DNA of 31,077 nucleotides, taken from contig JBHLPA010000001.1 of assembly GCA_048939935.1 (NCBI GenBank), positions 1 through 31,077 on the forward strand. Direction: 5' to 3'. Source of the stretch: Promethearchaeota archaeon (GTDB lineage Archaea; Asgardarchaeota; Thorarchaeia; Thorarchaeales; Thorarchaeaceae). Under the pieces are notes generated by a model that worked only from the letters and a program-made list of their open reading frames with translations, was not told where the DNA came from and searched no databases. Shown piece after piece: positions 3,295 to 26,096 of this stretch. The position numbers and the translations under genes are program-made. How positions within the stretch are numbered: the stretch's first letter is position 1; each line of letters starts with the position of its first letter.

Positions 3295-5541
3295 CTATAC
3301 ACCGAAATCTTCCAACAAGGTTTGCATTGAGTCAATATCATCACCATCATCATCAAAGTGTTCGGTATCATTTAGAGCTATTTTTACATCTATGCCCAAC
3401 TGTTTCTTGATTGATTGTGCGATAGATGTGCCAATGGTTGGAATCCTTGCTAGTTCTTCCACTGGGACTTTGTATAAGTCAGGTAAATTCACGAGATTAT
3501 GGTTGTGTAATATTCTACCTCTTACTCGTCCAACTCCCTTGAGACTTACAAGTTCCAAAATATCTGACTTTACTCCATAGCGAAGACGTGATCTAAGATT
3601 ATGAAGAAATGGACTGTGACTGGTCGAATTGGTAATTCTAGAAATCTCAGACGCGGCATATGTCAACCATTCTGCTGATTGTACAAATCGATGAACATCA
3701 CCCATGCCAACGTTATATCTCTCAGTGATATCCTTCTCTGTTTTCTCAGAGATCCAGTCCTGGAGCAAAACTGCTGTTTTTATTTGAGCCAGAAAATCTG
3801 CATAAGCACGAGGGTTTTCCTCTATTGGGGGTTCAACCATGAGTTCGTCAAGAGAATCTTCGAGCGCTACCTCATACTCCTCAACCTCAGAACTTGTGAC
3901 ATATGTCAGTGGTTGATCCGGTGAGTGGCAAATCAAATGAAGAATACCAATCATGGTATGACCCTTTGTTTTTGATAGGACATCACGAAAGAGGATAGCT
4001 GTGTAAGGGTCAATGTATAGTTGGGATGCTCTCCTACCAAGTGGAGTAGCTGTGTAGTGACCATCGGAACCTGTTTCTATAAGATCTCCTTCTTCGAGAA
4101 AACCTAGAGCTGAGGATACATGTTGATTGATCTCCCATTGATCAAACTGATGTGAAAAGAATGTCCCTGCGATTAGAAGGTCAATCTCCTCACGATCTCT
4201 AGTCATTTCAGCTGCTATTGAGGCTAGAAGATGTGAACGAACAGCACGCGGTGATGCCAATTTGGAAGTGATTTCTTCAGGTTCAGAGAGCGTATAGTTA
4301 TCGATAAGAAAATCATGTTCTGGTTCTGTCCGTGCGATGAGAACAGCCTCTCCATATTTATCATATTTTGGTCTACCTGCTCGACCAGCCATTTGTTTGT
4401 ATTCGAGAACGGGGATTGGATAGCTTCCACGTTCTGGTTCATAGCGTCTGTAATCACGAATAATTACACGTCTAGAGGGGAGATTCACACCTGCTGCTAA
4501 TGTTGGAGTCGCAATAATCACTTTCAATAGATTTTCCTTGAAGTAGTCTTCAACAAGAGACCGTTCTTGATTGTCAAGTCCTGCATGATGAAAGGCGGCA
4601 CCATTTGCAATCAACCGAGCTAGAGTTTTAGAAGCCTCAGGTGCAGAAGGAGTCTTTCCAATCCTAGTAGCACCTTTTGCAAGTTGGTGCATAGTATCAT
4701 CAGAGATATATCTACGCAGAAAGGGAGCAATCTTTTTTGCAACGGCGACTGTTGATCGACGACTTGAAACAAATACAAGGACTTGGCCGTCTTCATCAAG
4801 AGTGTCACAAACTACATCTGCTAGTTCATTCTTCCGTGTTCTCTTGATTCGCCGATGTTTGCTTTTCCCATCACTATAGAAACTGATTCTTCCGTCTAAA
4901 TAGACACCTTCACTTAGAGGCACCGGTCTCCAGGTGTCTTTTACAAGTTCAGCATCAAGCCACTCAGCAATCTGATTAGCATTGGAGATTGTCGCACTTA
5001 GAGCAACAACTTGAATGTCTTTTTTGATTTGGGTGAGTTTTGCTAGTACCATCTCAAGTGTAGGACCTCTTTTTGAATCATTAATGAGATGGATTTCATC
5101 AGCAACAACAATTCCAACATCATTGATCCATTCAGCTCTGTGACGGACCAACGAGTCAGCTCGTTCAGTAGTTACGATTATGATATCAGCATCACGTAAG
5201 CTTCTTCCTGGAGAGTCGTAGTCACCAACCGACATGGAGGTGGTGATACCCAAAGACTCGTATCTCTTGAATTCTGTATACTTTTCGCGGGCTAGTGATT
5301 TTAATGGAACAAGATAGAGTGCCTTACCTCGGCCATCAAGGATTGCTTTTAACATACAGATCTCTGCTACCAATGTTTTACCTGAACTGGTAGGTATCGC
5401 AAGAACCAAGTTCTTTCCATCGAGAACACCTGTTTTGAATGCACTAATCTGTGGTGGAAAAAGATCTGATATACCCTGAGACTGGAGATGTGTGATTATT
5501 CGTCTGTTGATGTCCAGCTCTTTCAGTCGAATATTGTTCAT
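3295..5541 (-). CDS. hel308: Ski2-like SF2 DNA helicase Hel308/Hjm
   Basis: PTSSGKT, DEIH, SAT, FHHAGL, TPTLAAGVNLP, QMAGRAGRP motifs. C-terminal RLRYGVK..L.L..LKGVGRVRGR HhH domain. Confidence 0.96.
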   Translation of the reverse strand: MNNIRLKELDINRRIITHLQSQGISDLFPPQISAFKTGVLDGKNLVLAIPTSSGKTLVAEICMLKAILDGRGKALYLVPLKSLAREKYTEFKRYESLGITTSMSVGDYDSPGRSLRDADIIIVTTERADSLVRHRAEWINDVGIVVADEIHLINDSKRGPTLEMVLAKLTQIKKDIQVVALSATISNANQIAEWLDAELVKDTWRPVPLSEGVYLDGRISFYSDGKSKHRRIKRTRKNELADVVCDTLDEDGQVLVFVSSRRSTVAVAKKIAPFLRRYISDDTMHQLAKGATRIGKTPSAPEASKTLARLIANGAAFHHAGLDNQERSLVEDYFKENLLKVIIATPTLAAGVNLPSRRVIIRDYRRYEPERGSYPIPVLEYKQMAGRAGRPKYDKYGEAVLIARTEPEHDFLIDNYTLSEPEEITSKLASPRAVRSHLLASIAAEMTRDREEIDLLIAGTFFSHQFDQWEINQHVSSALGFLEEGDLIETGSDGHYTATPLGRRASQLYIDPYTAILFRDVLSKTKGHTMIGILHLICHSPDQPLTYVTSSEVEEYEVALEDSLDELMVEPPIEENPRAYADFLAQIKTAVLLQDWISEKTEKDITERYNVGMGDVHRFVQSAEWLTYAASEISRITNSTSHSPFLHNLRSRLRYGVKSDILELVSLKGVGRVRGRILHNHNLVNLPDLYKVPVEELARIPTIGTSIAQSIKKQLGIDVKIALNDTEHFDDDGDDIDSMQTLLEDFGV

Positions 5542-16855: not shown

Positions 16856-17899
16856 GTGTGGTTTTTGACTGATGGAACATGTGAATCTCGTTTAACGAAT
16901 TCAAAATCGTGTCCTGACTGCGGTGGTTTTTTGGTTACCAGTCAAGGACATATTGTGTGTGCTGAATGTGGACTAGTACTCTCAAGAGAGTACGTCTTGC
17001 CAACGTATCAGATGGGAGAACGTCCCAGTGGTGATTCTCCTGATGCAAGCATGTATGTGTCTTTGGGAAATCGAATGCATATTGTTGATGGGCTTGGTAG
17101 TTACATAGGCTTTCACAAAGATCGATATTTTCAGGATTATCAAGGACATGCACTTTCTGGTAGAATGCAAAAGAAGTTCAAGCGTCTCAAGACAATATAT
17201 AGTACCAGAATTAGAATTGGAAAGAATGAGGCAAAGTATAGAGCTCTGCGGACCCTGAATCATGTATCAAAACTTCTTATGATTAATGAACAGGTTCGTG
17301 ATCGAACTGCCTATCTATACAAGAAAGTGGTGAATGAAACTGCAGGTAATATTAGCAATAACATACTATTGATAGCAGTCTGTCTTCTTATGGCTGTGAG
17401 AGAATTCAAAGATGAGGCCCCAATAACACTTGATGAAATAGCTGATGTGTTTGAGAAATGTGGACATCGAGTCAATGTACGGGCAATCGTACGAGAAGCA
17501 TTGAGACTCAAGTCACTCACAGGTTACTCACCGGAGATACGAAAACCAGAGGACTATGTTCCAAGAGTGATTTCAATGTTGATGAATAATTCAAAGGTGG
17601 TCAGTAAAGTGCAAGCACGTGGTTGGGATTTGAAGGATTTTGAGAATGCTCTTAGAAACAAGATACTGGAAGTTCTCAAGATGATACCAGCTTCAAAGCG
17701 AGGAGGAAGGAACCCGTTCATATTCACTGTTTCTGCAGCATATGCAAGTGATAGATTGATAGCTATGGAACACAGAAGACGAGCTGTTCTGACTCAGAAA
17801 CTTGCGTCTGCTGCAACAGAAGTAGCTGAGTACAGTATTAGAGACCACTTTGGGATGATGAAGAAAATCATTGAGGTGTCTCCAGCAACTATCCAATGA
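16856..17899 (+). CDS. tfb: Divergent transcription factor B (TFIIB family) paralogue
   Basis: Zn ribbon CPDCGG..CAECG, two cyclin-like repeats (VRDRTAYLYK; GRNPFIFTVSAAY) and C-terminal HTH TQKLASAATEVAEYSIRDHF. The canonical B-reader EWR motif is absent. The start could be TTG at 16865. Confidence 0.85.
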   Translation: MWFLTDGTCESRLTNSKSCPDCGGFLVTSQGHIVCAECGLVLSREYVLPTYQMGERPSGDSPDASMYVSLGNRMHIVDGLGSYIGFHKDRYFQDYQGHALSGRMQKKFKRLKTIYSTRIRIGKNEAKYRALRTLNHVSKLLMINEQVRDRTAYLYKKVVNETAGNISNNILLIAVCLLMAVREFKDEAPITLDEIADVFEKCGHRVNVRAIVREALRLKSLTGYSPEIRKPEDYVPRVISMLMNNSKVVSKVQARGWDLKDFENALRNKILEVLKMIPASKRGGRNPFIFTVSAAYASDRLIAMEHRRRAVLTQKLASAATEVAEYSIRDHFGMMKKIIEVSPATIQ

Positions 17900-17966
17900 T
17901 TTGGTCAATTCGTCTAGGAGGTTATCTAGCAATTTTCTGAATAGGAAATTGGAAAGAGGTGACTAG

Positions 17967-19649
17967 GTGAACGCAAAAATCCATGTGGTTCGTTGTCCCA
18001 GTGGACGTTGTGAAAAATGTCCTCAGAGAAAGGACAGTGGTTGCCAAAAACTCATGCATATCAATGAGCTAAAGGATATGAAGTCACAGGTGCTGTTGGT
18101 TGAACCCGAGAGAGGACTTCTTCATTTCTGTGAAGCAGGCAGTTTGAAACAATCTGAACCTTCGTGGATTACTGAGGGATGGGAAAGTGTATTCATTGGT
18201 ACTGATAGTGATTTGGTCCAAGAAGTGAATGACATAATTACTTTGTATAAAGTCGGACCTTATTTGTCTATATTCATGCTTGATGAGTATAAACAGGTAA
18301 CATACAATGCAGTCCCGATAGTAAGAACAGCTCTGGAACATTCACTTGTTGTCGATTTGATTCAAAAGTCAGTGCAGTTTAGTGATAAGTCATGTTGTGT
18401 AAGAGGAGATTATAATCAGAAGCTGAAACAGGACATTGATGATATCTCAAGGCATATTATGAATTCGATACCTGAGATGAATGAGAATACAAGAATCAGG
18501 CTCTCGGAAATTATTGCGTATCGTCGGAGCATCCTTGGAAAGATTATGCCAATAATTCTTGATGACTCAGTAGAGGAGATATACTTAGACCGACCTTATG
18601 CCCCCATTTATTTCGACCATCGGGAGAATGGTAGATGTGTCACTTCAATTTCATTCCAAGATGATGAAGTTCCAAATATAGTCACATTGATTCGATCTGA
18701 AAGTAATCTTCACTTGGATCGAAGTAATCCATCTCTTAAGATGGATTTCCAAATTGAGGATGCAGTTTTACGGTTTTCTGCAAGCATGCCGCCGCTTAGT
18801 CCCGATGGATTAAGCCTTGAGATACGTAGAGCTAGAAACAGTCCATTCACAATCAAAAACTTGATTGATAACGAAACACTGACTCCCGAAGCGGCGGCAG
18901 TTTTGCTTTTCGCAGTTTCTTGTAGATTCAATATCACTATTACCGGGGGTCCTGGGACTGGAAAGACAACCTTGTTGAACGCGTTGGATATGACAACCCC
19001 AAATTGGTGGCGAAAAATCTACATTGAGGATGCGATTGAGAGTAGAGATCAGGCGGCACATCATCAAGTTCGTTTTAGAGTAGATCCAATGGATGAGTTG
19101 TCAATGAAGTTTAGTAAAAGTGAGGAAATCATAAAATGTCTTCATAGATCACCAGATTATCTCATCCTTGGCGAAATTCAAACAGCTGAGCATAGTAGAG
19201 CATTATTTCAAGCAATAACAGCTGGTCTCCGTACTATCCAGACCTGTCATAGTGGATCAGCTGCAAGTCTTATTTCTAGGTGGAAACTTGGGCATGGTAT
19301 ACAGGATGATAATCTTGCTTTGATGGATGTTATTGTTACCCTCGACAGACCGAAGCCAGGCGAGTCAAAACGTAGAGTAAGTGAGATTATTGAAATACGA
19401 AGAAGAGAAGTAAATGGATTATTAGAATTCAACGGGTTGAATGTGATATATGATAGTAAGCTAGGAGTAGTCAGCAACTGGGCGAATGATGGAGCATTTA
19501 TGTCACGTGCAAGAGAATCTGGAGTTGAAAGCCATATTCCTGCTTTAAAGAACTTGATTCAGAATATTTGCCAAGACAATTATAAATCAAATCTTGGGAT
19601 GCTAAGTGAACTGATGTGGTCATACGGACATCCTATGTTGTATACTTGA
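17967..19649 (+). CDS. Secretion/pilus assembly ATPase, TadA/CpaF/VirB11/FlaI family
   Basis: EEIYLD, IRRAR, Walker A GGPGTGKTT, Asp box IEDAIE, Walker B RSPDYLILGEI, His box TCHS, RRVSEIIEI. Confidence 0.92.
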   Translation: MNAKIHVVRCPSGRCEKCPQRKDSGCQKLMHINELKDMKSQVLLVEPERGLLHFCEAGSLKQSEPSWITEGWESVFIGTDSDLVQEVNDIITLYKVGPYLSIFMLDEYKQVTYNAVPIVRTALEHSLVVDLIQKSVQFSDKSCCVRGDYNQKLKQDIDDISRHIMNSIPEMNENTRIRLSEIIAYRRSILGKIMPIILDDSVEEIYLDRPYAPIYFDHRENGRCVTSISFQDDEVPNIVTLIRSESNLHLDRSNPSLKMDFQIEDAVLRFSASMPPLSPDGLSLEIRRARNSPFTIKNLIDNETLTPEAAAVLLFAVSCRFNITITGGPGTGKTTLLNALDMTTPNWWRKIYIEDAIESRDQAAHHQVRFRVDPMDELSMKFSKSEEIIKCLHRSPDYLILGEIQTAEHSRALFQAITAGLRTIQTCHSGSAASLISRWKLGHGIQDDNLALMDVIVTLDRPKPGESKRRVSEIIEIRRREVNGLLEFNGLNVIYDSKLGVVSNWANDGAFMSRARESGVESHIPALKNLIQNICQDNYKSNLGMLSELMWSYGHPMLYT

Positions 19650-19681
19650 TAGGAGTAGTTCGAAACGCTCTTTTTGGGGGC

Positions 19682-19688
19682 TTTAAAA
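19682..19688 (+). promoter_or_regulatory. TATA box (TTTAAAA) of the prepilin gene
   Basis: 30 nt upstream of ATG 19718 and preceded by a T-run (about 19669-19675) that could terminate the ATPase transcript. Confidence 0.5.
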
Positions 19689-19717
19689 GGTGTCAGATAA
19701 ACATGAGTTCAAGGTGA

Positions 19718-19933
19718 ATGTCTTTGAAAAAGGATGATGGTCTTATTCGTAATGAGAGAGGAGGTCCTTTGGTGGAAGAAAGTCTTCTCCTTGGTCTTGC
19801 AGTGGTAACTGTTTCGATTGTAATAGCAGTCATCCTTCAAGCTACAGGATGGGCACAGGATGTTGTAAATGGACTTTTGCAACTCCTGCAAGATAGCTGG
19901 AGTAGTCTAACTCAATTGTTTGGTACACCTTGA
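19718..19933 (+). CDS. Flp-like type IV prepilin (class III signal peptide)
   Basis: Charged leader ending NERG, predicted cleavage G15|G16, Glu at +5 (GPLVE), about 22-residue hydrophobic helix, then an amphipathic helix. 71 aa, directly after the ATPase. Confidence 0.72.
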   Translation: MSLKKDDGLIRNERGGPLVEESLLLGLAVVTVSIVIAVILQATGWAQDVVNGLLQLLQDSWSSLTQLFGTP

Positions 19934-20016
19934 CATCTAATCCTTATTTTGGGGAAAGGCTTATTTGTGAATGTCCTGACGACCCCTCTCGCGCTCCGGA
20001 CTGGCTTTCGTTTACG

Positions 20017-20126
20017 GCTCCGGTAGAACATAGTATGTTTCTATACAATGATACCGATTGTAGTCCGGCCCAGCATGGGGGACTCTCGATCCCCCGACCC
20101 GGGTTCAAATCCCGGCCGGAGCACCA
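20017..20126 (+). tRNA. tRNA-Glu(CTC) with a 32-nt intron at position 10/11 (20027-20058), encoded CCA
   Basis: GCTCCGG/CCGGAGC acceptor, GGGGA-CT CTC GA-TCCCC (anticodon 20085-20087), CCGGG-TTCAAAT-CCCGG. Removing 20027-20058 restores the D-stem GTGT/GCAT. Perfect central helix CGGT/ACCG with 3-nt bulges AG|A and AT|T. Confidence 0.9.
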
Positions 20127-20136
20127 TTTCTAATTT

Positions 20137-22236
20137 TCATCCAACAAGGTATTTTCGTCGTAGAAATGGTACTATTGAGAGCCCAACAGATATAATGAGG
20201 ATCACTACTAGACCCGTAATACCCACTCCTTCTAATGACATGATATCAGATGATGAGATTTCAATTAAGAATGAGCCACTGGTCGCTTGGACTGATTCTA
20301 AATCTTCAGAATCGTATGACAAGAAATGGTTTCCAATTGTAGCAGGAATTTTGAGATGAAGTATGATAATTCCTCCTTCTTTGCTTTCAACTGTATCAAT
20401 AGAATCTAACCAATTGAAACTCACAGTGATTCCCTGTGGGGTTGATCCATTGAGGGCTGTAATTGTTATATGAACTGATAGTTCACGAAGTGGGGAGACT
20501 ATTTCGTAGAAATCTAGCTCAAGTCGTATGGGCATTTTATGAGTGACATAGAGACTGTAGTCTAATTTGGTTGCAAGCTCAAAGAGTGTGTTATTTCCAC
20601 TATATGATATAGAGATGTTGTATTGGTCTTCTAGGGATGGAGCTGAGAAAATCAGAGTCGTTCCGCCTGTGCTATTGGTATGAACTGAATGGTGACTCTC
20701 ACCATCAATTGAGAGTTGTATTTCTCTGAGTGATAAATTCCCAGCCCAGTCATTCATTTGAATCTTGAAGACTATTTCTTGGTCAGGTGAGGCATAGTGT
20801 TCGACATTACAAGCTACTAGTTGAATCTCAGGTTTAGACCATGCTGTAAAGTTACTGATCGAGCTGGTATCTAATATGAAAGGATTTCCAGTGAGTTCGA
20901 TTTTCAGATTATGAATTCCTGAAGGACCTTGCAGTTCATACTCAAAGATAGTAGTTATTTCACTCAGGCTGGAAGGTATTGTGAACCTTTGGTTTGATGT
21001 GATATCTAATATTGATATATCAAAATCTGGGATAAGACGATTTAGTAAGTCGGATACTGATACTTTAATCTCGAAAATCACACCAATTTCAACTGATTCT
21101 GGCAATGTCACGGTTAGTTGTACTGGAGTTAATATAGCGAGATCTGTTTCATAATATGATTCGGAGTGTCTTTCAGTTCCATTGTATTGTATTCTCAATG
21201 TATGAATACCAAGTGTGAATCTTTCATCAATATCGATTTGAAGATGAGCAATGCCCGAGCTGTTGGACTTGATATAGGAGAATAAGTTGTCATCCAGAGT
21301 GACTTCCAGAAACTCGTTTGGCAGTGAGTGGTCTGTATCTGAAAGTTCAATATATAGATTAAAGGATTCATCGAGCATTATTTCATCTGGATAACTACCT
21401 TGAGGTATGATTGAGGTAGGAATTTTCGATATATTGACTGTGAACATAGATTCTGATGAATCTAAGAAATTGTCTAAATCTTGGCTGTAAACCACGCGGA
21501 TGTTATTGTCCCCTAGTGTAATCCATGAACTGTTACACTCGATAGCAAAATGCGTTTCTCCTGAGGAATCAGTTTTGTTTTTCGCAAGTAAAATGGCATC
21601 CTTGAAAACGGCAATAGTTGCATCTGGAATAGAGCTAGATGAATCATCGGTTAGATGAACAGAAAAAGTCAACATATCACCAGGAGCAAGAATGTCTGAA
21701 ATTTGACTAATGTCAATGTTTGTCGAGGATACGATAGAAAGGAATGTCCATTGAGCAGAAGGTGCTAATGAGAGCGTATCATTACCATAGAAGGTTGCAT
21801 TAATCATCGTCATTCCAAGTGTATGATTCAAAGGAATAGACCATGATATCATTGCGACTCCATTTGTGTTTGTCTTAGCCGAACCAAGTGGAATATTGTA
21901 TGTCTGATCAAAGAAGAATATCCTTTGGTCTGGAACTGGATTCCCATAGCTGCCATTCTGAAGAAGTGTTGCTGTTATTGTGATTGTGGTTCCTCGAGCT
22001 ACCACTGTTTCTTCTTCTGCTACAACAGGTTCAGCACCGAATAATGTAACAGAAAGTGCTAGTAGAAAGATGAGCAATATCGAGACCAAATTTGATTTCC
22101 TGATGTTCTTTACCCCCTGAGGGAAGTTATATTCTGTTCTTTTCTGAGGATTCGTCACCAGTTCATCATTCGGTTTCTGGGTTTTTATTCTCCTATAGAA
22201 TGAATATTGTTGGGATGTTTGTTTAGGGGTGTTCAT
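20137..22236 (-). CDS. Membrane-anchored Ig-like repeat surface protein
   Basis: Signal-like KNIRKSNLVSILLIFLLALSVTLFGAEPVVA, repeated TxxxG.A motifs and LGxHxLxxxYxG strands, C-terminal TM GLVVILIISVGLSIVPFL followed by RRK. The start is uncertain (ATG 22236 or GTG 22158). The ORF-track start 22377 overlaps the divergent gene and is unlikely. Confidence 0.78.
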   Translation of the reverse strand: MNTPKQTSQQYSFYRRIKTQKPNDELVTNPQKRTEYNFPQGVKNIRKSNLVSILLIFLLALSVTLFGAEPVVAEEETVVARGTTITITATLLQNGSYGNPVPDQRIFFFDQTYNIPLGSAKTNTNGVAMISWSIPLNHTLGMTMINATFYGNDTLSLAPSAQWTFLSIVSSTNIDISQISDILAPGDMLTFSVHLTDDSSSSIPDATIAVFKDAILLAKNKTDSSGETHFAIECNSSWITLGDNNIRVVYSQDLDNFLDSSESMFTVNISKIPTSIIPQGSYPDEIMLDESFNLYIELSDTDHSLPNEFLEVTLDDNLFSYIKSNSSGIAHLQIDIDERFTLGIHTLRIQYNGTERHSESYYETDLAILTPVQLTVTLPESVEIGVIFEIKVSVSDLLNRLIPDFDISILDITSNQRFTIPSSLSEITTIFEYELQGPSGIHNLKIELTGNPFILDTSSISNFTAWSKPEIQLVACNVEHYASPDQEIVFKIQMNDWAGNLSLREIQLSIDGESHHSVHTNSTGGTTLIFSAPSLEDQYNISISYSGNNTLFELATKLDYSLYVTHKMPIRLELDFYEIVSPLRELSVHITITALNGSTPQGITVSFNWLDSIDTVESKEGGIIILHLKIPATIGNHFLSYDSEDLESVQATSGSFLIEISSSDIMSLEGVGITGLVVILIISVGLSIVPFLRRKYLVG

Positions 22237-22310
22237 ATGCTTAACGAGGGTACGATGGTTCGGTTCCGTAAGTGGCCATACTTGGAATAAGCATGATGAG
22301 GAGTTCATAA

Positions 22311-25300
22311 ATGCCATTTCACTTTGCACAACCAGAAGAAACAGGTTCGGGTTCTGAAAAGTTGTATAGAAGAACATGGATTGAATTACTCAGGATTGCT
22401 GGAGTAATGATTGCAGTATTCTATTTGTTGCTTGTCTATTTACTACCTTTGACTGGACTTGTTTCTCTACCGGTGGTTCCTTTCAAGGGATTCATTGAAG
22501 TGATAATTTGTAGTATTCCATTTGCTACAAGTCTGGTATTGACTGCTAGGAAAATTCGTCTTCAAAATCCATTGATTTGTATTGAAAGCAATACATTACT
22601 GATTCAGCTTGATGATCATGTTATTGGGACATGTTGTCTTGATATAGAATCTGTATCTGGTTCAGTATTATTAGATGAAAATGGGAAACCAAGGTATAAT
22701 GAAACTATGTTGTTAGCTATGCGTGCAGGAATGGACAAATCAGTCACGATGGCTTTTGAGGCGGGTGTAGAGAAAGGGGAACCATTTCTACATATCTTCA
22801 TAACCGCAATGGTGCACAGTCCAAATCATATTCAGGAAATTCTTAGAAGAGAAGCAACTAGAACTGAGGCAATTCTATTATCATCCCTACATAATGTGGA
22901 GATGCATCTTCTTGAGGGTGATTCACTACGAAATGCAATTCTGACTCATTTGAGTGGAGTTGGTATAGTAGATAATAATCTTAGTATCAATGAAGAAACA
23001 AAGTCAATGGGAGTATTGTTGCTTCAAGGAATGCCACGGTCATATCCAACTCAGGACTCATCTCAGATAGGGACCTTCATTTCCACAGCACTTAGACAAG
23101 GCTATGAAACAAGTATGACATGTGTGTTTTCAGCATCTAAGCCTGGTAAGGAGAAACGTGTACTTGAAAACAAGTGGAAAAGTATTCAGGCAAAAGAGAA
23201 ACGAAAGGAAGAATCATTGCAGGATTATGCCACAAAGAAGAAGCTTGTGTTTCGTTTTGAAGAAATTCAGGATTCATCTGGTTGGTTCGATACGACTGTG
23301 TATTTCAAAGTAAAAACATCGACAGAGAGTACCATTGAAGCAGATTTAGACGGAGTAAGTGGATTGGTTCTATCAATTTGGGGTGGTAGTGACTCCATCA
23401 GATTTGGTTCTGTGAAATTATCAAGAAGAACAATTTTTAGGATATTGAGTCGTCGTCATCTCAAACGTCAGCGAATGCATATAGTAAGATTATCATCATT
23501 TATCAATACCCCAATTCGACAGTTACCCGTAATCACTCCAAAACAAGCACCTGTATTCCCGGTCCCTCCAAAGGGAGTAGTGGATCACGAACTCGTTATT
23601 GGTGAAACTATCTTTGAAGGTCGTCGGCTGTCTAAAGTCGGATTAAAGACTGATTGGTTACGCGAACATGTTGCCATTCTTGGAGCAACGGGAACTGGGA
23701 AAACAACCTTAGTAAAACAGCTTATGGCACAACTTAGCGTGAAGACAGATGTACCATGGTGGATATTTGATGTAAAGGGTTCGGAGTACTTAGCTCTAAC
23801 GGATTATGGGGAGTCAGAGATAGTAGTCTTGAAACCTGGTCTAGATAGCTCTTTTTCGTTTAATCTAATCGACCCTGAGCTTATTGATGATGAGAACTAT
23901 ACTCATTCTACTTTTGTGATTCTAAGAGAGTTGCTGAATGAGAGAGGTGATTCTTCTGAGTTATCTCCAGCAATGGAGAAGCTGCTTCGTGATTCAGTGA
24001 TGCTCGTTATGGAGTCTGCAGACAGGGGTAATTCAGTTCGGTCTCTGGTTAGTGCTGTATCAGAACTTTCTAACAATGACCGTATAGGGAACATGACAAG
24101 AGACGCTTTACTCAATCGTCTTGAAATACTCACCCGTGAACCACTAGGCTCGATTCTTGGAGGAAAGCCAGAAACAATCCGATTCAAAGATCTGTTGGAT
24201 AGACGTGTAATCCTAGATCTCTCATACGTTGCACGTGTCGGAGGAATGGATTCTGCTAGATTCCTTTACAATCTTGTTGCAAAACGTATCTTTGATAGTG
24301 CCATGAAACGAGGCATTATTGAGGGCTTACACCATGTTGTGGTGTTGGAAGAAGCAAGTAATCTAGTACCAGAGAGCTATACAAGACACTCTGCAGCTGA
24401 TGTAACCACCGGGGAATCGATGGTGATGTTACAACGAGCAACAGGACAGGGAGTAATCGTGGTTTCGACTAGACCCAATATTTCCTCGAATATTCTGGCG
24501 AATACTTCGACAAAGATTTCTTTTCGATTGCCATATGATAGTCAGATTGGTGCAAGATTTCTCTCCTTGAACGAAAGACAAGAACAGTATCTTCGAACAT
24601 TGAAACGGGGTAGGGGTTTAATGAGCATACCCCACTCTGAAACTTTTGAGATTGTCACAGAAAGGTTTCATGAACCAAGAAAAGAAGATCGGACAGAATC
24701 TTCATCCATTGAAGATGTTCCAATTATAGAAAAACCTGTTTCTAGTAGAAAGGAAGATATGCCTATTACTGATTCAAAGATTAAAGAACCCGATGAAGTG
24801 CCAGAAAGTCAGACTCTTGTGTTCAATAGAATTGATAGACTTGGAAGTCATGTTGTAGCATTTCTAGCGTCAGAAGGATGGGCAACAGAAAGAGAGATTT
24901 GTAATCTACTATCTGTCCTAGATTCTAGGGTTGCAGATGATGATATTTCTGAAGTTATTCGTAATCTAGTATCGCTGGGAAGTGTAGAGAGAGAAGCACT
25001 ATCTCTTGTTGATGGGGGTTTTGTATATACTCTTCCTGGAAAAGCCATGGTTGCTATCAGACAAATAATTATTGAATATATTTCTGGAAAACTTGGGATT
25101 GAGTATAACCCCGTTACTATATCTGATAATCCTGATTGGCCAGATATTGTATTCGAAGACAAGGCGGTAGTTATCATTCCTGAACATTTGAGAGCGTCAA
25201 CAATTAGCTTGACTTTAGATTTGATAAGAAATAAAATGAGCAAGCTTCAGAATGGTGTAAGTGAGCTTTTCGTAGTCGTAAGAGGTAGTGTTGCAGCCGC

Positions 25301-26096
25301 AAAGATAAGGGAAATGATGGATTCATCAGAGGATTTCAATGATGTTAGTGTTGTTTCTGCATTTCCGAGAGCTCTAGACTCAATTATTGGAAACTTGGCA
25401 CAGGAATCTGATACTTCTGAAATCTCCTCAGTCCAGACTAGGTTGGCAGAGGATGGGGACTCTAGTGAGCACGTAGATTTGATTGGTGCGATGCATGGTG
25501 TAGGGTCTGCTACAAACCGTGCAATCCAGATTCGATTATGGTTTGGCTTGATTCAAGATCTTGTAGACATATCAAATGGTCAAGTTAAATGGGAAGAACT
25601 GTTGGAATTCATTGAAACCACTGCTCTTCAGTCATTAAAAGGAAGATCAGCTCCATTGAATATTGAGGAGGGAAAAAGGGCATTGACAGAGTTGTTAGCT
25701 GATGAGGTTCTGATTGCTCTTCGGGTCAATAATGATTCTCGATTCGTCGAACTTGATGAGGGTCTCTGGTTGGTTAATTCTACTGTTCTTAAGAGTTTCA
25801 AAGAAAAAGCAATAGATATGATTGGAGAAGAGCTGAAAAAGAAAAACTCCACAGTTTCAAAGAATCATGGATATTATGATCTTTGTGTTGGCGATACTTC
25901 TTATGTGATATTTCCAAATCAACAACAACTGAATACTCTTCTTAATCTGCATAGTGATGTTGCTTGTAGGACCTGTAAATCAACAAGAGTTGTTTGTGTT
26001 TTGACTGCATCAGAATATCTAGAAGAGAGTGTGACTACACCAAGTAATCTGATTATCAGGACAATGGATGATAACACATCAGCACTGGTTACTTGA
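22311..26096 (+). CDS. Membrane-anchored HerA/VirB4/VirD4-superfamily (DUF87-type) ATPase with long C-terminal wHTH-containing extension
   Basis: Two N-terminal hydrophobic segments, HVAILGATGTGKTT Walker A (about 23682-23705), FDVKGSEY, VILDLS, Walker B VVVLEEA, QRATGQG...STRP, NTSTKISFRL. GAGGAG SD before the ATG. Confidence 0.88.
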   Translation: MPFHFAQPEETGSGSEKLYRRTWIELLRIAGVMIAVFYLLLVYLLPLTGLVSLPVVPFKGFIEVIICSIPFATSLVLTARKIRLQNPLICIESNTLLIQLDDHVIGTCCLDIESVSGSVLLDENGKPRYNETMLLAMRAGMDKSVTMAFEAGVEKGEPFLHIFITAMVHSPNHIQEILRREATRTEAILLSSLHNVEMHLLEGDSLRNAILTHLSGVGIVDNNLSINEETKSMGVLLLQGMPRSYPTQDSSQIGTFISTALRQGYETSMTCVFSASKPGKEKRVLENKWKSIQAKEKRKEESLQDYATKKKLVFRFEEIQDSSGWFDTTVYFKVKTSTESTIEADLDGVSGLVLSIWGGSDSIRFGSVKLSRRTIFRILSRRHLKRQRMHIVRLSSFINTPIRQLPVITPKQAPVFPVPPKGVVDHELVIGETIFEGRRLSKVGLKTDWLREHVAILGATGTGKTTLVKQLMAQLSVKTDVPWWIFDVKGSEYLALTDYGESEIVVLKPGLDSSFSFNLIDPELIDDENYTHSTFVILRELLNERGDSSELSPAMEKLLRDSVMLVMESADRGNSVRSLVSAVSELSNNDRIGNMTRDALLNRLEILTREPLGSILGGKPETIRFKDLLDRRVILDLSYVARVGGMDSARFLYNLVAKRIFDSAMKRGIIEGLHHVVVLEEASNLVPESYTRHSAADVTTGESMVMLQRATGQGVIVVSTRPNISSNILANTSTKISFRLPYDSQIGARFLSLNERQEQYLRTLKRGRGLMSIPHSETFEIVTERFHEPRKEDRTESSSIEDVPIIEKPVSSRKEDMPITDSKIKEPDEVPESQTLVFNRIDRLGSHVVAFLASEGWATEREICNLLSVLDSRVADDDISEVIRNLVSLGSVEREALSLVDGGFVYTLPGKAMVAIRQIIIEYISGKLGIEYNPVTISDNPDWPDIVFEDKAVVIIPEHLRASTISLTLDLIRNKMSKLQNGVSELFVVVRGSVAAAKIREMMDSSEDFNDVSVVSAFPRALDSIIGNLAQESDTSEISSVQTRLAEDGDSSEHVDLIGAMHGVGSATNRAIQIRLWFGLIQDLVDISNGQVKWEELLEFIETTALQSLKGRSAPLNIEEGKRALTELLADEVLIALRVNNDSRFVELDEGLWLVNSTVLKSFKEKAIDMIGEELKKKNSTVSKNHGYYDLCVGDTSYVIFPNQQQLNTLLNLHSDVACRTCKSTRVVCVLTASEYLEESVTTPSNLIIRTMDDNTSALVT

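Follow-up and report, generated by a model that had tools for sequence, protein, structure and literature searches.

The window, a stretch of 31,077 nucleotides from the genome of a Promethearchaeota archaeon of the Thorarchaeaceae, carries a Thorarchaeota tRNA-Glu(CUC) gene on the forward strand (20017-20126) with CCA encoded at its 3' end (Table 1). Its neighbours are, at 16856-19933, a TFIIB-like gene, a secretion ATPase of type II/IV and a hydrophobic pilin-like ORF of 71 aa, and, at 20137-26096, an Ig-domain protein and a HerA/TrwB-like ATPase of 1261 aa; any read-through from the neighbouring operon would also contain the leader of the tRNA. The gene is detected neither by ARAGORN nor by Rfam, and a relaxed ARAGORN run on the genome returned only noise. 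On contig C101 of genome G000, an isolated T-arm with a 3' acceptor strand follows a protein gene on the minus strand (~4750-4790); it resembles the tRNA 3' end at that contig's end (~11927) and is possibly an integration-site duplication.

Table 1. Features of the tRNA-Glu(CUC) locus, numbered from the first base of the window
Feature	Positions	Strand	Remark
Predicted archaeal promoter	19951-19967	+	Conserved at all Thorarchaeota loci
Purine-rich BRE-like GGGGAAAGG	19951-19959	+	
TATA-like TTATTTG	19961-19967	+	TTATTT at 19961-19966
Leader copy of the 5' acceptor strand, GCTCCGG (placeholder core)	19993-19999	+	No more than a few nt from the predicted start; would pair with 20116-20122
Thorarchaeota-specific extension RCTGG	20000-20004	+	Missing from Bathyarchaeia-type leaders
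Variable spacer, element to tRNA start	20005-20016	+	
Exon 1 of tRNA-Glu(CUC), positions 1-10	20017-20026	+	U8 follows the 5' acceptor strand
True 5' acceptor strand GCTCCGG	20017-20023	+	
BHB central-helix strand C5-U8	20021-20024	+	
5' bulge: A9, G10 and intron base 1		+	
Non-canonical intron, 32 nt, position 10/11	20027-20058	+	Hairpin-forming; precisely missing in intronless relatives
Intron strand of central helix, ACCG	20053-20056	+	
Exon 2: D-arm, anticodon arm, T-arm, discriminator A, CCA	20059-20126	+	Near-identical among relatives
Anticodon CTC	20085-20087	+	
3' acceptor strand CCGGAGC	20116-20122	+	

The exon 1/exon 2 junction at 10/11 is fixed by 13 intronless Thorarchaeota genes together with an outgroup. 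[quoted passage not shown] This helix, CGGU/ACCG, has all four pairs in each of 69 distinct intron-bearing genes, among which the intron-side strand varies between ACCG, GCCG, GTCG and ATCG. A contiguous outer helix on the intron side reaches at least 2 bp in 36 of these genes, is 1 bp long in 14 and is missing in 19; in the window's gene it consists of one pair, then a bulge and an imperfect stem, and on the exon side the helix is just C4-G12. The intron is a non-canonical BHB intron of the relaxed kind, a known class. Non-canonical BHB and HBh' introns occur in archaeal tRNA genes, in Thermoproteales down to position 3/4 (PMC4090602), and Asgard genomes are rich in non-canonical tRNA introns (PMC11291895; preprint 10.64898/2026.10.13.758758), those of the D-arm included (preprint 10.64898/2026.10.13.758758). 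The present intron resembles them in being short, in its 4-bp central helix and two 3-nt bulges, and in a host that has two EndA subunit genes and RtcB. Unlike them, it draws its central helix from acceptor bases and is accompanied by a dedicated copy in the leader. Bases 5-7 of the acceptor are taken up by the central helix, so the BHB and the native acceptor stem cannot form together; the conflict can be read from the sequence and costs the stem three pairs. No match to the 10/11 tRNA-Glu pattern was found beyond the Thorarchaeota family in 400 Asgard genomes, a result of an exact-pattern search that falls short of proving absence. L035 (G036) has the anticodon loop CCCTCGA, with C for U at position 33, which is either a sequencing error or a real variant.

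The promoter lies unusually far from this tRNA only if the distance is counted to the tRNA itself. In the window the TATA-like box starts 56 nt 5' of the true tRNA start and 32 nt 5' of the leader copy, and across the 69 genes it starts 47-57 nt before the tRNA and 28-32 nt before the copy. Where other tRNA genes of the same genome show a clear box, it lies 29-41 nt upstream, so the box-to-copy distance is a normal one for tRNA starts and the copy is located where the transcript would begin. A pyrimidine stands just 5' of the first G of the copy in 67 of the 69 genes, and in 65 no second A/T run of at least 6 was found at promoter distance from the tRNA. By archaeal promoter geometry, transcription would begin at about 19990-19993, which would make the leader copy the 5' end of the precursor. 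In genus g4 the box-to-copy distance has shortened to 25 nt, so the start would fall inside the copy.

A sequence-only reading of the locus had pointed to the repeated GCTCCGG, to the complementary CCGGAGC and to a BRE with TTATTT at 19951-19966, with coordinates that are all correct. It described the element as a 7-mer with a single partner. The 7-mer is real, but the element is longer and has further candidate partners: the whole conserved unit is the 12-mer GCTCCGGRCTGG (19993-20004), the consensus of the 69 genes, and exon 2 holds two more possible pairing sites. In the full precursor, CUGG of the extension has CCAG (20070-20073) as a possible partner; until the 3' end has been transcribed, 20061-20068 could be bound by CCGGRCUG (19996-20003). 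The 12-mer is found once in the 2.45-Mb assembly; from genome frequency, the chance of meeting the 7-mer in a 30-position leader is about 5e-4, and a screen found no second acceptor copy at other complete tRNA genes of the genome, including those with introns elsewhere.

Conservation follows the limits of the 12-mer closely. Over the 69 genes its columns score 0.91-1.0 outside the A/G position, with 0.94-0.99 for the RCTGG columns apart from R (A in 49 genes, G in 20), against 0.28-0.86 in the 15 nt upstream and 0.35-0.62 in the spacer. The first three bases are invariant and G12 is retained in 65 of 69 genes. The element is thus near-invariant over 13 genera while its flanks diverge in sequence and length; the copy lies 24 nt from the true 5' acceptor strand in the window and 19-25 nt from the tRNA in Thorarchaeota generally. 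Copy positions 6-7 tolerate G-to-A mismatches in 7 genes, and against the 3' strand the copy is mismatched at up to two positions (L127). L032 is the one intron-bearing gene with a changed acceptor, GCCCCGG/CCGGGGC, the true 5' strand covarying with the 3' strand; the leader copy does not follow, keeping its U as a wobble pair. No compensatory change between copy and 3' strand was found in the 69 genes, as the 3' strand is almost invariant.

The element is tied to the intron. All 69 intron-bearing Thorarchaeota genes keep the 12-mer, 65 of them at 11/12 or better (53 match at 12 positions, 12 at 11, 3 at 10 and 1 at 9), whereas none of the 13 intronless genes reaches 11/12 (5 match at 10, 3 at 9, 2 at 8 and one each at 7, 6 and 5). 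The expectation that relatives with the intron would keep the copy was borne out, in Thorarchaeota (69/69) and in the second lineage described below. Its counterpart, that intronless relatives would lose it, was borne out in part, since one intronless genus retains 9-10 of the 12 bases and G360 has an intact 7-mer (7/7). On an RpoB tree of 29 genomes the intronless ones fall in at least three places: G359 groups with genus g4 (99/91), G362 and G366 share a genus with intron-bearing genomes and are their sister (100/98), while G358 and G360 stay unresolved near the base; G363, with no RpoB match, was left out. The long leader and the frequent remnant in intronless genes suggest that the intron was lost and the element then decayed. 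Neither the outgroup nor the intronless tRNA-Glu(UUC) paralogues have a copy (best match at most 5/7, with short leaders). Intron and copy may be co-inherited, so the counts are not those of independent events. The 12-mer is judged to be a genuine RNA element under selection that accompanies an intron of a known kind. Some loci carry signs of binning noise: G011 has three different copies of the tRNA-Glu gene on three contigs, tiny contigs of G020, among them C172 and C192, bear tRNAs of the Bathyarchaeia type, and L092 is a Thorarchaeota-type tRNA contig of 504 bp in a Bathyarchaeota bin.

The copy might instead be a neutral relic, left when an intron-bearing 5' segment was inserted behind an old 5' end so that the promoter and the old first bases remained upstream. 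Such an event would place the copy at an ordinary tRNA-start distance from the TATA box and make it co-occur with the intron, as it does, and may well be how the copy originated; as an account of its present state it is very unlikely, given near-invariance over 13 genera amid diverging flanks and decay where the intron is absent.

A second lineage of such genes emerged from a metagenome scan whose pattern contained no leader bases. It yielded 27 tRNA-Glu genes that have a 10/11 intron and a D-arm of another type, and in all 25 with enough upstream DNA the motif GCTCYG lies 6-22 nt before the tRNA, where about 2% would be expected to have it. One gene of this kind is found in genome G401, which belongs to the same class as Candidatus Bathyarchaeota. 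Across 201 genomes of that class, an upstream 6-7-nt copy is present, among the matches listed, in 15 of 15 intron-bearing and 3 of 135 intronless tRNA-Glu genes, with 41 matches beyond those listed; two of the three copy-bearing intronless genes have a leader as in intron-bearing relatives and look like remnants. Bathyarchaeia-type leaders share only the 6-7 nt complementary to the acceptor and lack RCTGG. As only these bases are common to both classes, the common core is the acceptor mimic. Both the Bathyarchaeia-type and the Thorarchaeota genes include kin and are non-independent samples; the two classes may have gained intron and copy separately or from a shared origin.

Individual loci show peculiarities of their own. 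In L277 and G455:C17:1605-1631 the spacer is 0-1 nt, giving a tandem repeat of the tRNA's first six bases, and G455 is intronless. Among Bathyarchaeia-type genes, the leader GCTCTG occurs together with a D-loop T at the matching CCGG position in L170, L179, L046, G560:C5, G548:C140 and G550:C70, a co-occurrence that is not compensatory; L202 has the leader change without the D-loop change. Extra D-loop or anticodon-arm insertions are present in the 10/11 tRNA-Glu genes L177, L182, L213, L246, L251, L253, L262, L277 and L284.

The two lineages bear on whether the copy acts as DNA or as RNA. An initiator or protein-binding site over the transcription start would need no RNA pairing, and the location of the copy at the predicted start and the palindrome TCCGGA in the 12/12-type genes are what such a site might look like. 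Yet the copy follows the intron and not the promoter, which is conserved in intronless relatives as well; in two archaeal classes, which differ in their promoters, it repeats the first bases of the tRNA itself; and RNA wobble pairs survive C-to-T changes. A DNA element is therefore highly improbable.

They also bear on where the tRNA begins. If the upstream copy were the real 5' end, the 24 nt between the copies would have to be removed as a second intron. The sequence-only reading had found no BHB for this, which holds for registers 1/2 to 7/8, where a central helix is missing; at 9/10 a BHB-like motif of the right geometry does arise, with four central pairs and two 3-nt bulges: CCGG in the copy meets CCGG at bases 4-7, and the cuts would follow 20001 and 20025. 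The idea fails on other grounds and can be given next to no weight: position 8 of the product would be A or G and not U, L127 would have up to two mismatches in its acceptor, the 3' strand of L032 covaries with the downstream strand and not with the copy, and spacers in the other lineage can be as short as 0-3 nt. A further BHB-like geometry between leader and D-loop (bulges RCU and CCC) was rejected, as cutting there would delete the D-arm and RCU pairs with bases 14-16. A split, trans-spliced tRNA was rejected since both exons are contiguous behind one promoter at all loci, and a circularly permuted tRNA since the upstream element is a copy of positions 1-7, with T-arm and 3' strand downstream.

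Folding predictions, from a model that ignores tertiary structure and yields no cloverleaf even for the mature tRNA, show how the copy could matter. In the minimum-energy fold of the window's precursor the copy pairs with the 3' acceptor strand, CUGG pairs with CCAG, and exon 1 pairs with the intron; removing the leader lets the native acceptor stem form. The proposal that the copy takes the 3' acceptor strand while the true strand is engaged in the BHB is matched by a median pairing probability of 0.997 over the 69 genes, and folding with and without the leader gives the switch it foresaw, the central-helix probability having a median of 0.90 with the leader, 0.04 without it and 0.09 with the spacer only. 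In the second lineage the corresponding values are 0.88 and 0.01. CUGG/CCAG pairing in the full-length precursor has a median of 0.63; the invariance of the D-loop was dropped as support for it because the intronless UUC paralogues have the same bases. Shuffling the 12-mer at constant composition still gives a median central-helix probability of 0.43 in the 69 genes, so a G+C-rich leader helps somewhat and the folding test is supportive but only moderately specific. Even with the leader, the probability stays below 0.5 in 15 of 69 genes. Together, the association with the intron and the folding support the earlier suggestion of a surrogate acceptor strand encoded in the leader.

The pairing could also serve mainly to handle the ends of the precursor: a tRNA-like upper half would protect the unspliced RNA, permit 3' trimming or tether the 10-nt exon 1 to exon 2 for ligation, while the endonuclease could capture the BHB without any help from the copy. 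The decoy fold does preserve the geometry of acceptor, T-arm and anticodon arm, and 4 of the 69 genes need no leader for the BHB helix to form. In 62 of 69, though, the native stem wins when the leader is absent. At equilibrium, exon 1 by itself also has much the same computed affinity for exon 2 as leader and exon 1 together (-6.5 vs -4.7 kcal/mol), so no tether advantage is computed, and this reading is judged quite unlikely.

Partial transcripts bring in the D-arm. When a transcript ends short of the T-arm, the predicted partner of the leader is D-arm bases 13-19 (median 0.98); the rival pairing of bases 4-7 with the D-loop CCGG is lost (0.27 to 0) and the central helix gains (0.51 to 0.89). 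Leader pairing with the D-arm would account for the purine at position 8 and suggests that the element acts in two stages in Thorarchaeota. The D-arm might even be the working partner, with CCGGRCUG and bases 13-19 forming a surrogate BHB outer helix and the likeness to the acceptor being incidental. Besides the dominance of this pairing before the T-arm is made, the match is a perfect 8 bp, position 8 is always A or G, either of which pairs with U16, and a C at position 12 lengthens the helix in three genes. Against it, the probability of the pairing is about 0 in all 69 full-length precursors; the first three bases never vary and G12 is retained in 65 of 69 genes; L110 has UGG shifted by 3 nt, which breaks the D-arm helix and leaves the other pairing intact; and Bathyarchaeia-type leaders have no extension. 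As the main function this is unlikely, and D-arm pairing fits better as an early step of a placeholder mechanism.

The leader 12-mer is, with good probability, a cis-acting placeholder strand that enables splicing and sets it before RNase P cleavage. Splicing at 10/11 needs C5-G6-G7-U8 to pair with the intron's ACCG. Before the 3' end is made, the leader is computed to lie on D-arm bases 13-19, keeping their CCGG off bases 4-7; once the 3' acceptor strand emerges, it would form 7 bp with the copy, and CUGG would pair with CCAG of the D-loop. The computed outcome is a tRNA-like fold with an enlarged arm that would present the BHB. A two-subunit splicing endonuclease would then cut and RtcB ligate. 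The genome has two PF01974 EndA genes, of 187 and 232 aa, consistent with an (alpha-beta)2 enzyme; endonucleases of the (alpha-beta)2 and epsilon2 types cleave non-canonical introns (PMC5829648), and an RtcB gene and RNase P RNA are also present. The freed true 5' strand would next displace the identical copy by strand exchange, aided by tertiary folding, and RNase P would remove the leader irreversibly. The exchange is the weakest step: the modelled preference for the decoy over the native stem has a median of 7.0 kcal/mol before splicing and still 4.9 after it, with 60 of 69 genes shifting towards the native stem upon splicing. A nick in the unconserved spacer would be an alternative way to release the decoy. 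Because the true +1 lies outside any acceptor stem until splicing, the copy would also force splicing to precede 5' maturation.

Parts of this scheme have parallels in known systems. In the split tRNAs of Nanoarchaeum equitans and Caldivirga maquilingensis (PMC4090602, PMC3218864), flanking sequence outside the exons likewise pairs to set up a BHB; there, however, two transcripts are involved, whose leader and trailer build the BHB by pairing with each other and are removed by EndA, whereas here there is one transcript, the leader pairs with mature tRNA sequence outside the BHB, and RNase P would remove it. Permuted tRNA genes, as in Thermofilum pendens and Cyanidioschyzon merolae (PMC3218864, PMC3978253), share the long promoter-to-tRNA distance that hides tRNA-like sequence and the splicing before end maturation, but their upstream piece is the 3' half and not a duplicate of the 5' strand, and the present gene has normal exon order and no circular intermediate. 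In bacteria, pairing of the leader with the 3' RCCA (PMC9433436) also puts leader bases on the tRNA 3' end and delays 5' cleavage; that pairing extends the native acceptor stem, whereas the present leader stands in for the 5' strand in its entirety and goes together with an intron. A literature search found no published account of a leader replacing an acceptor strand, with an earlier mention possible in Marck and Grosjean 2003 or Sugahara 2008; the review PMC4090602 has no such leader element, and the word 'leader' occurs nowhere in the Asgard preprint 10.64898/2026.10.13.758758.

A broader proposal, held with little more than even confidence, is that placeholder leaders are in general use among archaea, arose on more than one occasion and license introns whose splice motif intrudes into the acceptor stem. 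In Thorarchaeota the leader would be a two-stage co-transcriptional chaperone, acting on the D-arm and then on the acceptor, combined with an RNase P checkpoint, and introns adjacent to the acceptor would persist only with such a leader.

Archaeal tRNA leaders are regarded as disposable, and BHB introns as local, self-contained motifs. The leader copy points to a structural requirement that lies outside both intron and exons, and offers a way in which an intron could be spliced although its recognition motif conflicts with the acceptor stem. Processing is predicted to run in the order of splicing, strand exchange and RNase P cleavage. The copy also provides an annotation marker for tRNA genes missed by standard tools. 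For the intron-rich genomes of Asgard archaea and Bathyarchaeia, in which the way introns arrive has been described as open (preprint 10.64898/2026.10.13.758758), the placeholder leader offers a rule by which they could be gained close to the 5' end of a tRNA.
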